Sequence record: OL631478.1
Source: Escherichia phage ECML-1
DNA: 64,000 bases
Strand: one strand, 5' to 3'
Shown: one piece after another, positions 52,521-63,556 of the stretch
Layout: every line of letters begins with the position of its first letter
How positions within the stretch are numbered: the stretch's first letter is position 1
Made by a program: the position numbers and the translations under genes
Notes under the pieces: model-generated
Told to the model about the DNA's origin: nothing
The model's database searches: none
The model's input: only the letters and a program-made list of their open reading frames with translations

Positions 52521-52542
52521 AAAAAAGGCTCCCGAAGGAGCC
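52521..52542 (-). terminator. intrinsic terminator (minus strand)
   Basis: Reverse complement reads ggctcc-ttcg-ggagcc followed by tttttt; directly downstream of the endolysin gene. Confidence 0.65.
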
Positions 52543-52552
52543 TATGAAGATA

Positions 52553-53017
52553 TTACTTTGGATATACACTGTCAAGATAAATGTCAGCTTCCATTCTACG
52601 TCTGTTTTTCAGACCGTTTGAGGTGACCTTCTTACCTTTGACTGTAACCTTGTTCCACCACTGCATAGCTTCTGCGCAACCTACCTTATTACCAGCATTG
52701 TGGCGCTTGATAAATGTAGAATCCTGCATAGCTGTGATGCCGATGTTGTATGTTTCACTTACAAGTGCATCAAACTCGTTCTGAGAAGTTGGAACCTTGA
52801 TAGCTTTGTTCACTGCTGTAACAAACTTTTCAACATCTGCGAGAAGATAATGTTCAGCTTGTTCAGCAGTAATTATCATACCCATCTTAACAGGTTTTCC
52901 GTCAATACGGATTGTACCATACCCGATTGTAGGGATTCCGGCAGAGTCTTCGTAAGCCTCTAACTTCAGACCTTCAAAGAACTTAATAGCTTCTAAACCT
53001 TTTCTTGAGAGTTGCAT
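52553..53017 (-). CDS. endolysin, phage lysozyme (GH24-like)
   Basis: FEGLKLEAYEDSAGIPTIGYG matches the catalytic-Glu region of phage lysozymes; 154 aa. Confidence 0.75.
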   Translation of the reverse strand: MQLSRKGLEAIKFFEGLKLEAYEDSAGIPTIGYGTIRIDGKPVKMGMIITAEQAEHYLLADVEKFVTAVNKAIKVPTSQNEFDALVSETYNIGITAMQDSTFIKRHNAGNKVGCAEAMQWWNKVTVKGKKVTSNGLKNRRRMEADIYLDSVYPK

Positions 53018-54150
53018 TATGCCTCCCCTGCTGGGTTAACTGTAACTGTTGCCGCATTAGATGTTACAGAGCCACCTGCGCCAGTCACTACACAGGTGTA
53101 GCTTCCTGCATCAGCAGCGGTTGCACCTTCTTTGGTGTAAGTTGCAGCAGTTGCGTCTGGGATGACTTCCTCACCTTTCTTCCACTGATAACCTGTCGCA
53201 CCTGTTGCCACAACATTCAGTGTTAAGGTCTCACCTTCAGTGATTTCTTGATTGGTTGGTTGCTGAGTGATTACCGGAAGTGCATTCACAGTAACTGTTG
53301 CAGGGCTAGAAGTAACAGAACCACCTGCACCTGTTACAACGCAAGTGTATGAACCTGCATCTGCTGGCAGAGCACCAGACTTGCTATAGGTAGCATTTGT
53401 CGCTGAAGGAATGTCAGAGCCATCTTTCTTCCACTGGTAACCCGTTGCACCCGTTGCAGTCACTTCCAAGCTGATGTTTCCACCCTCATTGATGGTCTGG
53501 CTAGAAGGTTGTTGTGTAATCACAGGTAGTGCGTTCACAGTCACTGTTGCTGCATCTGAGGTAACACTTGTTCCACCCTCTCCAGATACAACACAAGTGT
53601 ATGAACCAGCGTCAGAAGGTGCTACTGACTGTTTTGTGTAAGTTGCAGAATTGGCACTAGGGATGTCCTCACCATCCTTTTTCCATTGATATCCAGTGGC
53701 ATTAGTTGCAATAACGCTTAGGGTAAGTGTACCCCCTTCATTTACTGTTTGATTGGTTGGTTGCTGAGTGATTGATGGTGGCTTGATAGCATCCTTCAAC
53801 TTAGCATTCAACATTGAGAAAGGTTTAACTCTTGCCAGCCATTCACAATAAACTGTATCAACGTCTTTACCATTGATAATTGCATATTGTAAGTCCATGA
53901 AGAAGTCAGACGTTCTCATTTGAGCACCAACGCTGTAAAGCAACTCATCACTAAATGGAACTTTGTAGTCTGGTTTGTAGTCAAACTTCTTAACTTCTGC
54001 AATATCAGCTTCAGGCCAATACGAACTATAGGTAAGTGGTAAAATAGCCTCTTGATATGTTCTAAAATCATATCTCTTACCAGCCTTTACGTTTGCAACG
54101 AAGCCCTTCACAAACTCTTTGAAGTCTGGGTAAGTCTTTGCTTTAATCAT
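53017..54150 (-). CDS. protein with three tandem Ig-like repeats (possible Hoc-like decoration or adhesin protein)
   Basis: Three ~85 aa repeats each with GATGYQWKKDG...AGSYTCVV...TVTVNALPVITQQP; N-terminal domain paralogous to the product of 54147..54518. Confidence 0.55.
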   Translation of the reverse strand: MIKAKTYPDFKEFVKGFVANVKAGKRYDFRTYQEAILPLTYSSYWPEADIAEVKKFDYKPDYKVPFSDELLYSVGAQMRTSDFFMDLQYAIINGKDVDTVYCEWLARVKPFSMLNAKLKDAIKPPSITQQPTNQTVNEGGTLTLSVIATNATGYQWKKDGEDIPSANSATYTKQSVAPSDAGSYTCVVSGEGGTSVTSDAATVTVNALPVITQQPSSQTINEGGNISLEVTATGATGYQWKKDGSDIPSATNATYSKSGALPADAGSYTCVVTGAGGSVTSSPATVTVNALPVITQQPTNQEITEGETLTLNVVATGATGYQWKKGEEVIPDATAATYTKEGATAADAGSYTCVVTGAGGSVTSNAATVTVNPAGEA

Positions 54151-54518
54151 TTCTTTTTAGCCTCTAAATGTGCGTTTAGTCTAAAATAACCTTTGTGATG
54201 CGGAGATACATCACCAACAACAATACCTTTAACCTTATAGCCTTTACCAATTACATACTGGATATCCATAAGGAATCTTCCAAGTCCAACAATATGGAAC
54301 ATTGGATATAATAGGTTCTCAGAATCTGGAATATTGATTTCAGGTTTGTAGGTACGCTGTTCGATTGTTGGTGTAATATCTTCTTCAGGCCATTTGCTGA
54401 GTCTCCATGTCAAAGGTGTTGGGATAACATCATTAAGGTTGTACCTTTCACCATTTTGCACGGAATTGATATAGGATTGTAGGAAGCAATAAAAGTCTTT
54501 TGCACTCTTAGCTTTCAT
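54147..54518 (-). CDS. hypothetical protein, paralogous to N-terminal domain of the Ig-repeat protein
   Basis: MKAKSAKDFYCFLQSYINSVQNGERYNL parallels MIKAKTYPDFKEFVKGFVANVKAGKRYDF. Confidence 0.5.
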   Translation of the reverse strand: MKAKSAKDFYCFLQSYINSVQNGERYNLNDVIPTPLTWRLSKWPEEDITPTIEQRTYKPEINIPDSENLLYPMFHIVGLGRFLMDIQYVIGKGYKVKGIVVGDVSPHHKGYFRLNAHLEAKKK

Positions 54519-54565
54519 TAAGTATCCTTATAAATAGTTAAAGGGGCATTAGCCCCTATTCACAC

Positions 54566-62647: not shown

Positions 62648-63382
62648 ATGAAAGAGATGACAGAACAAGGTAAGGAGATTTTTAATCTCTTAAAAACCGG
62701 TAAAGGGTTCTCTAACCCACTGATTACCGGTGCAGCAGTTCTCGGTGGAACCGTAGCTGCTTCTACATCACTTGTAAGCTCTATTAGTTCTGTAACAGAC
62801 CCTACAATGAAGGAGAAACTTGTTGCTGCTGGACTTACAACAGTCCTTCTAAACAGCTTTACAACAAGCCTTACAAGCACTACAGCAACTACTAAAACTC
62901 TGACAGACTACGGTCAAAAGTCTATTGATGAGTTTTCATCACGTATGCAGGTAGCAAAGGGGTATTCCAATGTTATGGGTGCAGCAGGAGAACAAGTTGG
63001 TTGTACACCATTCAGTGGTATCATGGGTGTTGCTACAGAGTATGGTCAAAAAGCTATTGACATGATGAACAGTACACTAGATAGTGTTAATGGTGTGTTA
63101 AGTGACTTACAAGATGCTATTGATAAGGGTCTTGATACTGTTTCTGATTTAGCTAACCAAGCTGTCAGTAAGATTAATGAAGGTATCTCAAAGATTACAG
63201 CTTATGCAGATGAAGTTGTGCAGATGATTGAAGAAGAAGCTGCCCTTATTGCAGAGTACCTTAAAACGAATATCAATGGGTTCTTAGCAGGTATCTTACC
63301 AGACTGGTTTGATGATGCTTGTAAAACTGGTGTGATTGACACTATTGCAACACCAGAAATGAAGAACGCATTACAGAAATAA
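62648..63382 (+). CDS. hypothetical protein (Ser/Thr/Ala-rich)
   Basis: Start moved to the internal Met (MKEMTEQ) because the ORF-track start lies inside tRNA-Phe; 244 aa. Confidence 0.45.
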   Translation: MKEMTEQGKEIFNLLKTGKGFSNPLITGAAVLGGTVAASTSLVSSISSVTDPTMKEKLVAAGLTTVLLNSFTTSLTSTTATTKTLTDYGQKSIDEFSSRMQVAKGYSNVMGAAGEQVGCTPFSGIMGVATEYGQKAIDMMNSTLDSVNGVLSDLQDAIDKGLDTVSDLANQAVSKINEGISKITAYADEVVQMIEEEAALIAEYLKTNINGFLAGILPDWFDDACKTGVIDTIATPEMKNALQK

Positions 63383-63384
63383 TG

Positions 63385-63476
63385 GAAGATTAACCCTAAA
63401 AGGTAAGGGAGCAGTTTGCTAAACTGCCAGTAGCTGAGAAATCGGTGTACCAGTTCAAGTCTGGTATCTTCCTCCA
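63385..63476 (+). tRNA. tRNA-Ser(GCT)
   Basis: Type II, acceptor ggaagat/atcttcc, anticodon arm gcagt-ttgctaa-actgc, long variable arm, CCA encoded. Confidence 0.6.
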
Positions 63477-63480
63477 ATTT

Positions 63481-63556
63481 GAATCCGTGACAGAAATGGC
63501 TATGTGCCTGTCTGCAAAACAGGTTTATAAGGGTTCGAGTCCCTTCGGATTCTCCA
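63481..63556 (+). tRNA. tRNA-Cys(GCA)
   Basis: Acceptor gaatccg/cggattc, anticodon arm cctgt-ctgcaaa-acagg, T-arm aaggg-ttcgagt-ccctt, CCA encoded. Confidence 0.65.

Follow-up and report, generated by a model that had tools for sequence, protein, structure and literature searches.

A predicted capsid-decorating Hex-Dec gene in Escherichia phage ECML-1 and the conserved CapBD paralogue directly upstream of it

The window analysed here, 64,000 nucleotides of Escherichia phage ECML-1 (OL631478.1), carries on its minus strand a cassette of three genes: a stand-alone CapBD paralogue of 123 aa (54147..54518), identified by ORF, BLASTP and PHROG comparison as a member of phrog_4463 with no annotated function; the Hex-Dec gene, encoding 377 aa (53017..54150); and, third, an endolysin gene (52553..53017) for a GH24 phage lysozyme (Pfam Phage_lysozyme, 4.8e-40). 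An earlier reading of this DNA made without database searches (the sequence-only reading) had drawn attention to the first two ORFs, and both are present on the minus strand where it had put them. The stop codon of the paralogue overlaps the Hex-Dec start (ATGA), and the endolysin ATG overlaps the Hex-Dec stop (TAATG). The cassette is closed by an intrinsic terminator (52526..52543, minus strand; AGGCTCC-TTCG-GGAGCCT, then TTTTTATTTT) that is annotated in wV8. At its other end, a conserved intrinsic-terminator-like hairpin (54530..54556, minus strand; GGGGC-NNNN-GCCCC with a T-rich tail) lies just upstream of the conserved ribosome-binding site of the paralogue (AAGGA, 54525-54529); this hairpin is kept, with loop changes, in wV8, Felix O1, Bas63 and Sf14, bears a terminator annotation in wV8 and has an entry in Table 2 for Felix O1. 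Between the upstream terminator and the ribosome-binding site of the paralogue no convincing sigma-70 promoter was found, candidate sites there being fewer than in shuffled sequence. The Hex-Dec gene stands outside the structural module and directly 5' of the endolysin gene, an order common to wV8, Felix O1, Sf14 and Bas63. Over the full cassette length, nucleotide identity to Felixounavirus genomes is 95-97.5%, and by this measure the window is a Felixounavirus genome resembling those of Felix O1 and wV8.

The 377-aa product matches phrog_3995 (E=2.6e-208, covering positions 1-290 of 294) and, in a phmmer search of the PDB, Hex-Dec chains 9NCF_S (E=6e-297) and 9C2D_S (E=1e-167); its counterparts in phages heid and wV8 are ~94-98% identical as proteins. 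Its N-terminal CapBD (aa 1-123; 53782..54150, minus strand) aligns gap-free to 9NCF_S and 9C2D_S wherever these are modelled, with 87-97% identity to the N-terminal domains of orthologues, and finds Hex-Dec chains as its only PDB matches; Pfam holds no model for it. Three Ig-like domains follow on the same strand: domain 1 (aa 124-207; 53530..53781; Pfam Ig_3 at 124-189), domain 2 (aa 208-290; 53281..53529; Pfam I-set at 209-282) and domain 3 (aa 291-373; 53032..53280; Pfam Ig_2 at 292-371), the last of which is the equivalent of Ig4 in Bas63, whose protein has four such domains, as residues 196-375 pair with Bas63 residues 279-458 in the alignment to 9NCF_S. A CapBD-only alignment searched against IMG/VR yielded 28 confirmed loci: the contigs of 26 are 73-94 kb long, the other two loci sit on fragments (23 and 51 kb), and the matches of all 28 resemble those of known Ounavirinae phages. 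A search of 1.84 billion representatives with a profile from another alignment was dropped as a measure of CapBD distribution: through sequence weighting, the profile had come to include positions from the first Ig domain, and the 57,696 matches were swamped by giant bacterial proteins with Ig repeats.

In two cryo-EM studies published in 2025, the orthologues of this protein, Bas63 Hex-Dec (PMC12609058) and Sf14 gp20 (PMC11821841), sit centrally in hexamers of a T=9 capsid, as one monomer per asymmetric unit and only in those hexamers that adjoin pentamers; the CapBD was defined there as the N-terminal 118 aa. Arg79 and Arg107 of Sf14 gp20 are bound to the major capsid protein by salt bridges with its Asp221 (PMC11821841). 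Both arginines are present in the ECML-1 protein (QMR79T and LAR107VKP) and are invariant among the Hex-Dec sequences examined. We infer the capsid location and anchoring of the ECML-1 Hex-Dec from these conserved residues and from the 87-97% identity to its orthologues. On a T=9 capsid with 60 hexamers adjacent to pentamers, the CapBD, ~120 aa, would accordingly fill the depression in the middle of each such hexamer, where Arg79 and Arg107 would anchor it to Asp221 of three major-capsid-protein subunits. The orthologous Felix O1 gp36 is a virion protein by mass spectrometry, with 44% coverage (PMC3185647), and both Felix O1 ORF36 and ORF37 reach maximal expression at 60 min in published data, for which the ORF numbering was checked. 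The suggestion in the sequence-only reading of a capsid-decoration or adhesin protein is therefore borne out as to the capsid by the cryo-EM position of the orthologues and the presence of gp36 in virions.

Most GenBank records tell a different story, labelling the 377-aa protein 'tail protein', 'major tail protein' or 'HK97 major tail subunit', that is, a tail protein or major tail subunit whose Ig domains would be displayed on the tail tube in the manner of HK97 or lambda gpV. The tail label of phrog_3995 and matches of the Ig region to the major-tail PHROGs 158, 853 and 3575 agree with this, but these three matches are confined to the Ig repeats, and Hex-Dec lacks the N-terminal tail-tube fold of the major tail and tail tube proteins that carry C-terminal Ig domains. 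In two independent cryo-EM studies the N-terminal domain of the orthologues lies at the centres of capsid hexamers, and the authors of the Bas63 study call the tail annotation incorrect (PMC12609058). We therefore regard capsid decoration as the right description and the database label as an error, a tail role being most improbable; the label, widespread for this locus, is corrected here.

The three I-set domains would project outward from the capsid as a flexible acidic fibre with a net charge of -12. By analogy with T4 Hoc, the most likely role of the Ig array is adhesive: the fibre would let the virion cling weakly to surfaces, to mucus or to cell envelopes, a non-essential aid that would better the odds of meeting a host. 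On the dispensability of Hex-Dec, a conditional-fitness screen scored Bas63 g124 as more essential on E. coli S17-1 than on three further strains in the comparison (PMC11482910).

The repeats themselves are in register, with ITQQP at aa 127/211/294, GYQWKK at 153/237/320 and AGSYTCVV at 181/265/348, giving a period of 83-84 aa, and Pfam recognizes three Ig domains in the product (Ig_3, 6e-34; Ig_2, 1e-28; I-set, 3e-26), so that the three tandem Ig-like repeats proposed from the sequence alone are upheld; the family carries one to four such C-terminal tandem domains, and the window has three. The sequence-only reading had also proposed that a recent local duplication made the gene pair and a recent expansion the three repeats. 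The adjacency of the two genes and the similarity of repeats in tandem invite such a view, but neither part of it is supported. Pairwise, the repeats share 70-72% identity as protein but only 65-69% as DNA; their pS of 0.66-0.85 is saturated, and Tandem Repeats Finder detected no array at the Ig period. The paralogue and the N-terminal domain are 35% identical, with a pS of 0.75, also saturated at synonymous sites, and the pair occurs in the same arrangement already in Mooglevirus (Sf14 and Moogle) and Suspvirus. A recent origin is thus very improbable for pair and repeats alike. Nor was horizontal acquisition of the Ig array retained, as its GC content of 48% against 37% had suggested: GC3 is 0.31, a value typical of the phage and matched elsewhere in its genome, and only codon positions 1 and 2 are enriched, so that the excess reflects the amino-acid composition of the array.

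In the alleles examined, the direction of change seen in the repeats is the opposite of expansion. Hex-Dec alleles of ~630, 880, 1130 and 1380 nt occur among 252 matching records, and the two-Ig and one-Ig alleles examined (Felix O1, REP9, vB_CECAV_041) are in-register chimeras of Ig1, Ig2 and Ig3, that is, recombinant derivatives of the three-repeat form, and hence contractions. One homologous-protein search that returned almost only one-Ig forms, a bias of candidate collection, was left out of this distribution. Differences in Ig number arise through in-register recombination, with GYQWKK and SYTCVV as the motifs involved and loss as the change mainly observed here; by such unequal recombination between repeats, Ig number drifts within the genus.

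The paralogue directly upstream was correctly recognized by the sequence-only reading as related to the N-terminal domain of Hex-Dec. The resemblance is far beyond chance: BLASTP aligns the two with 35% identity across 101 aa (E=1e-16), their PHROG families cross-match (phrog_4463 at 2e-15, phrog_3995 at 4e-15), and in the whole PDB the 123-aa protein matches only the two Hex-Dec chains, over residues 2-117 (E=6e-12 and 2e-11); to phrog_4463 itself it aligns along 1-123 of 123 (E=5.9e-80). An AlphaFold2 model is of low confidence (pLDDT 57.6), and its top Foldseek matches are 9C2D_S and 9NCF_S at TM ~0.55, no other structure coming close. Between them, the paralogue and Hex-Dec CapBD families share 26 invariant alignment columns. 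In all paralogues, Arg79 is replaced by Gly and Arg107 by His or Gln; since both capsid-anchoring arginines are replaced throughout, we do not class the paralogue as a capsid binder of the Hex-Dec type. Identity among paralogues is 73-100% within Felixounavirus, Mooglevirus and Suspvirus, and omega of 0.04-0.2 at dS up to 0.9 denotes purifying selection. These comparisons identify the paralogue as an old, conserved duplicate of the CapBD that lacks Ig domains.

Neither structural paper mentions the paralogue (PMC11821841, PMC12609058). Its orthologue is not in the published Felix O1 virion proteome, which consists of older shotgun data (PMC3185647), and by inference the paralogue is absent as well from the 22 virion proteins of VpaE1, likewise from an older shotgun proteome; at 14 kDa, a protein's absence from two such proteomes and from maps averaged icosahedrally counts only weakly against its presence. 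Phage STGO-35-1 is a siphovirus and hence of no help on the virion proteomics of the paralogue.

The paralogue, an ancient CapBD duplicate without Ig domains, is translationally coupled to Hex-Dec and may act while the head matures, with Hex-Dec or the hexamer centres as its target, in a role that would be useful yet dispensable. Because both anchoring arginines are lost and the protein is unseen in virions, our tentative preference, held at somewhat under even odds and by inference only, is for a non-virion, or at most sub-stoichiometric, accessory factor. For the account as a whole, in which the 377-aa ORF at 53017..54150 is Hex-Dec with the capsid site and Ig fibre described above, we estimate a probability of roughly 0.85.

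Other roles for the paralogue were weighed against this one. It could be a second hexamer-centre decoration that fills the 20 three-fold-axis hexamers closed to Hex-Dec. Hex-Dec is excluded from those hexamers because the geometry of Asp221 differs there (PMC11821841), and the paralogue has replaced exactly the two arginines that depend on that geometry. It shares the CapBD fold, its most conserved segment (aa 68-118) corresponds to the capsid-contacting half of the CapBD, and in Felix O1 its orthologue is expressed late along with Hex-Dec. A monomer on the three-fold hexamers would have been missed, on this proposal, because of its small size and because icosahedral averaging smears it. However, both structural papers found the remaining hexamers free of such density, and for Sf14 this extends to an asymmetric map at 4.5 A (PMC11821841, PMC12609058); the virion proteins of Felix O1 and (by inference) VpaE1 do not include the paralogue, though 12-copy proteins were detected; and the REP9 lineage has lost it. 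We judge a second decoration of this kind unlikely. That same loss might instead mark a redundant, functionless relic of an ancestral Ig-less decoration gene on its way to disappearance: an internal deletion of ~180 bp makes the paralogue a pseudogene in REP9, REP5, Z31 and vB_CECAV_041 (Hex-Dec remaining intact in REP9 and vB_CECAV_041), ~19 of 252 records are without an intact copy, and the product is undetected in virions. Against decay stand the selective constraint noted above, a stretch of 50 aa invariant between genera and an intact gene, always of 122-124 aa, in more than 90% of records and in several genera, and we consider a relic distinctly improbable.

A programmed -1 frameshift at 'U AAA AAG' just before the stop codon of the paralogue would join the two ORFs in a CapBD-CapBD-Ig3 fusion. 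Relative to the paralogue, Hex-Dec is indeed read in the -1 frame, and there is a likeness between this motif and the slippery site of dnaX. With such a first base, however, the heptamer does not permit P-site re-pairing, and Hex-Dec is equipped with a ribosome-binding site and an ATG of its own; both are conserved, and both are retained in the lineage without the paralogue. In Bas63 this ribosome-binding site lies in the last ~20 nt of the paralogue gene (bas63_0125). The motif is not conserved either, reading GAAAAG in wV8 and GCTAAGAAATGA in Sf14 and giving way to other C-termini in Mooglevirus; the programmed fusion is therefore rejected, its probability being close to nil.

The structure, capsid site and variable Ig count of Hex-Dec were already published in 2025. 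Not found in either structural paper are the CapBD paralogue directly upstream, the loss there of the anchoring arginines, and the change of Ig number by in-register recombination. Taken more broadly, the paralogue (Felix O1 gp37, Sf14 gp21, bas63_0125) might be an unrecognized part of the decoration system, either as a third decoration on the 20 three-fold hexamers or as a maturation placeholder or chaperone that chooses the hexamers for Hex-Dec. This is possible, if on balance doubtful; it would explain why Hex-Dec is found on only one of two hexamer classes. Should the paralogue control or complement hexamer-specific decoration, the pair would offer a simple system for how a decoration protein distinguishes quasi-equivalent hexamers, and its role would also matter for the use of Hex-Dec as a scaffold for display on therapeutic phages of the Felix O1 type.

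Among the closest known systems is the Hex-Dec of Bas63 (Escherichia phage JohannRWettstein; 9NCF chain S), which comes from the same genus and has the same gene order of paralogue, Hex-Dec and endolysin. Its CapBD is near-identical, with Arg79 and Arg107; its Ig1 and Ig2 are the counterparts of domains 1 and 2, and the last Ig domains of the two proteins share ~97% identity. It differs in having four Ig domains and 460 aa rather than three and 377 aa, its divergent third domain being absent from the window. Shigella phage Sf14 gp20 (9C2D / 9C3A chain S), from the genus Mooglevirus, has three Ig domains and a CapBD that is 87% identical without gaps; the paralogue gp21 lies directly 5' of gp20, which was detected in virions by mass spectrometry (PMC11821841). 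Sf14 belongs to another genus and is only 62% identical in the Ig region, and a short spacer in place of the overlap separates its Hex-Dec gene from that for the endolysin. Felix O1 gp36 and gp37 are the orthologous pair, both late transcripts; gp37 is 99% identical to the window paralogue, whereas gp36 has two Ig domains, the second an Ig2/Ig3 recombinant. T5 pb10 (PDB 5LXK, 8ZVI) matches the Ig part of Hex-Dec only (E=1.8e-12). It has a single Ig domain, and we know of no CapBD-only paralogue adjacent to it.

T4 Hoc is a functional parallel. Like Hex-Dec, it is a hexamer-centre monomer that joins a string of Ig-like domains to a small capsid-binding domain, and it is acidic, dispensable and presumed to serve adhesion or environment sensing (PMC12609058). 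The matches of Hex-Dec to the 'Hoc-like' PHROGs 2973, 4069 and 3945 are restricted to aa 121-290. Hoc binds via its C-terminus, so that the domain order is reversed in Hex-Dec, whose CapBD is larger, pseudo-C2-symmetric and unrelated in sequence to that of Hoc; the Bas63 paper describes the CapBD as topologically distinct (PMC12609058). On a prolate T=13 head, moreover, every hexamer carries Hoc; on a T=9 head, Hex-Dec is confined to the pentamer-adjacent hexamers. Hex-Dec therefore works like Hoc while standing outside the T4 Hoc family.

Judged by its sequence, the 377-aa product of the minus-strand ORF at 53017..54150 falls squarely within the Ounavirinae Hex-Dec family of Hoc-like capsid decorations and possesses every one of its defining sequence features, all of which were tested. 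Across the locus, DNA identity to Felixounavirus genomes (heid, KhF3 and wV8 among them) is 95-97.5%. The protein matches phrog_3995 (2.6e-208) and, more decisively, chain S of PDB entry 9NCF from phage Bas63 (E=6e-297; 'Immunoglobulin-like domain protein') and chain S of 9C2D and 9C3A from Shigella phage Sf14 (E=1e-167; 'tail protein'). The widespread labels 'tail protein' and 'major tail protein', which stem from Ig-domain similarity alone, are rejected here, and the Bas63 authors call them wrong (PMC12609058). The sequence-only reading had guessed at capsid decoration, and rightly: the orthologous Hex-Dec of Bas63 and gp20 of Sf14 are located on the T=9 capsid as monomeric Hoc-like decorations, with the N-terminal 118 aa (the capsid-binding domain, CapBD) seated in the hexamer centre, the Ig domains flexible and unresolved in the structures, and one copy per asymmetric unit, present on pentamer-adjacent hexamers only and never on true three-fold axes (PMC12609058, PMC11821841). 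In Sf14 gp20, Arg79 and Arg107 are salt-bridged to Asp221 of three capsid subunits (PMC11821841); both are kept in the window protein and are invariant among the Hex-Dec sequences examined. Felix O1 gp36, an assignment for which the ORF numbering was verified, was detected in CsCl-purified virions with 44% coverage (PMC3185647). In a genome-wide knock-out screen, Bas63 g124 (Hex-Dec) was scored as more strongly required on E. coli S17-1 than on three comparison strains (PMC11482910), a strain dependence that fits an accessory adhesin.

The three tandem Ig-like repeats recognized earlier are borne out by repeat register and by Pfam: they occupy aa 124-207, 208-290 and 291-373 (83-84 aa each, in register), ITQQP, GYQWKK and AGSYTCVV each occur three times, and Pfam places three Ig domains (Ig_3 6e-34, Ig_2 1e-28, I-set 3e-26). 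The N-terminal domain (~120 aa) is, as had been proposed, paralogous to the 123-aa product of the adjacent upstream ORF (54147..54518, minus strand), the whole of which is covered; the coordinates of both ORFs proved exact. Evidence for this relationship includes 35% identity across 101 aa (BLASTP, E=1e-16), reciprocal PHROG matches (2e-15 and 4e-15), 26 alignment columns invariant over both families, and a search of the whole PDB in which two Hex-Dec chains are the paralog's sole matches (E ~1e-11, residues 2-117). At the level of sequence, chance resemblance is excluded. The paralog spans the entire CapBD, both lobes, and its low-confidence AlphaFold model (pLDDT 57.6) has 9C2D_S and 9NCF_S as sole meaningful Foldseek matches. 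Pfam has no model for it, PHROGs label it function unknown, and the words 'paralog' and 'duplication', like its gene name, occur in neither structural paper (PMC12609058, PMC11821841).

The paralog, Hex-Dec and an endolysin (52553-53017, minus strand) form a compact cassette in that order, as also in wV8, Felix O1, Bas63 and Sf14; stop and start codons overlap at both junctions, in ATGA between paralog and Hex-Dec and in TAATG between Hex-Dec and endolysin. Just upstream of the paralog lies a conserved terminator-like hairpin (GGGGC-N4-GCCCC, 54530-54556), of which the GGGGC/GCCCC stem is kept and the 4-nt loop varies (TAAT, TTAT, TGAT, TAAC, GAAA) in the window and at homologous sites in four relatives (L001, L002, L003, L008). 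There is no space for a sigma-70 promoter between this hairpin and the paralog's ribosome-binding site, and a strong terminator (52526-52543) stands just downstream of the cassette. By RT-PCR, Felix O1 ORF36 and ORF37 belong to the class with maximal expression at 60 min, together with morphogenesis genes. Presumably the paralog is produced late, at a fixed ratio to Hex-Dec. A candidate -1 slippery site at the paralog's end (GCU AAA AAG AAA UGA, 54147-54161), which would extend the paralog into Hex-Dec as one fusion protein, is not conserved in wV8 or Sf14 and is therefore probably a coincidence of the Lys-rich C-terminus. The endolysin is the ortholog of Bas63 g123, which the PhageMaP preprint (PMC11482910) reports as less needed in several defence backgrounds and tests as a possible retron Ec67 trigger. 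Elsewhere in the window, 25 tRNA genes are clustered at 57810-63556 (plus strand) directly downstream of the gene for a DUF2828/DUF7788 protein (56229-57644; phrog_850, labelled 'RNA-binding protein', 2e-183), the usual Felixounavirus arrangement.

The sequence-only reading also held that the gene pair arose by recent duplication and the Ig array by repeat expansion; both proposals are contradicted. The pair is common to several genera: the stand-alone paralog immediately precedes Hex-Dec in Felixounavirus (84-100% identity) as well as in phages of Mooglevirus and Suspvirus type (73-77%). Synonymous sites are saturated both between paralog and CapBD (pS 0.75) and among the Ig repeats (0.66-0.85). 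The repeats are less identical in DNA (65-69%) than in protein (70-72%), and Tandem Repeats Finder detects no DNA array at the repeat period. The GC excess of the Ig region (48% vs 37%) sits in codon positions 1-2; GC3 (0.31) is phage-typical, hence recent import is not indicated. A locus of Felix O1 type with both paralog and Hex-Dec (~86% protein identity) also occurs at 142309-143190 of GU169904.1, 'Staphylococcus phage SA1', a record that probably contains foreign or chimeric sequence.

Among 252 matching phage records, Hex-Dec alleles measure ~630, 880, 1130 or 1380 nt, which corresponds to one to four Ig domains, a variation already noted in the 2025 structural papers (PMC12609058, PMC11821841). 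Block-wise nucleotide comparison identifies chimeric Ig domains: the second of Felix O1 follows wV8 Ig2 for codons 1-28 (100% identity) and then wV8 Ig3 (93-100%); the first of REP9 passes from Ig1 to Ig2; and the only one of vB_CECAV_041 passes from Ig1 to Ig2 and to the end of Ig3. Crossovers in these chimeras lie at two conserved motifs, GYQWKK and SYTCVVTGAGGSVTS; the shorter alleles, also evidence against recent expansion, therefore derive by in-register deletion from a form carrying at least three Ig domains. The window allele corresponds to that of Bas63 minus the latter's divergent third Ig domain. In Shigella phage Z31, Hex-Dec (L004 2998-3570) is in two pieces, a 134-aa ORF that holds the CapBD and 10 further residues, and a 55-aa Ig-domain fragment; this could be a naturally Ig-less form or the product of a sequencing frameshift.

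An intact paralog is lacking in ~19 of the 252 records. In the sub-lineage of REP9, REP5, Z31 and vB_CECAV_041 it is a pseudogene with an internal deletion of ~180 bp and recognisable 5' and 3' remnants, the latter retaining the Hex-Dec ribosome-binding site. The remnants (5' '...AAAGACTTTTATTGC...' and 3' '...ATTGTTGGTGATGTGTCCC...TTAGAGGATAAAAAGAA') occupy a gap of ~190 bp upstream of Hex-Dec in REP9 (L005 2806-2997), Z31 (L004 2806-2997) and vB_CECAV_041 (L006 2813-2997) and represent natural loss through internal deletion; Hex-Dec is intact in REP9 and vB_CECAV_041 despite the pseudogene. We infer that the paralog is functional yet dispensable. Its conservation profile parallels that of CapBD, peaking at aa 68-118, and its 'LLYPMFHIVGLG.FLMDIQYV' segment is nearly unchanged across genera. 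In every paralog, Gly stands in place of Arg79 and His or Gln in place of Arg107, and docking like that of Hex-Dec has probably been lost.

The paralog is missing from the list of 17 Felix O1 virion proteins (PMC3185647) and, by inference from the paper's text, from the 22 virion proteins of VpaE1. Our tentative reading (probability about 0.45) is that it serves Hex-Dec or hexamer centres in head maturation as an accessory factor that is either sub-stoichiometric or absent from the virion. The main rival, a role as third decoration of the 20 three-fold hexamers, would account for the empty centres of these hexamers in both cryo-EM studies (PMC11821841, PMC12609058) by symmetry averaging, and appears unlikely. 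Less likely again is a redundant relic in decay, such as the pseudogenes might suggest, since the paralog is under purifying selection (omega 0.04-0.2; dS 0.9 vs Sf14).

Hex-Dec itself is already known in structure; of interest beyond it are the undescribed CapBD-only paralog, for which we tentatively favour the accessory role, and the recombination process behind changes in Ig number. At E<=1e-3, a profile including the Ig unit (window array 53032-53781) picked up 57,696 cluster representatives, with giant proteins of 2,000-7,400 aa and up to 70 copies at the top; among non-phage proteins in the PDB, the best match is GhpA of Aureispira, a grappling-hook protein (E=7e-75, 15 stretches). T5 pb10 has the N-to-C order and Ig fold in common with Hex-Dec, the sequence match being limited to the Ig part. 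Hoc is a functional analogue: Hex-Dec is likewise a hexamer-centre monomer bearing a string of Ig domains, acidic and dispensable.
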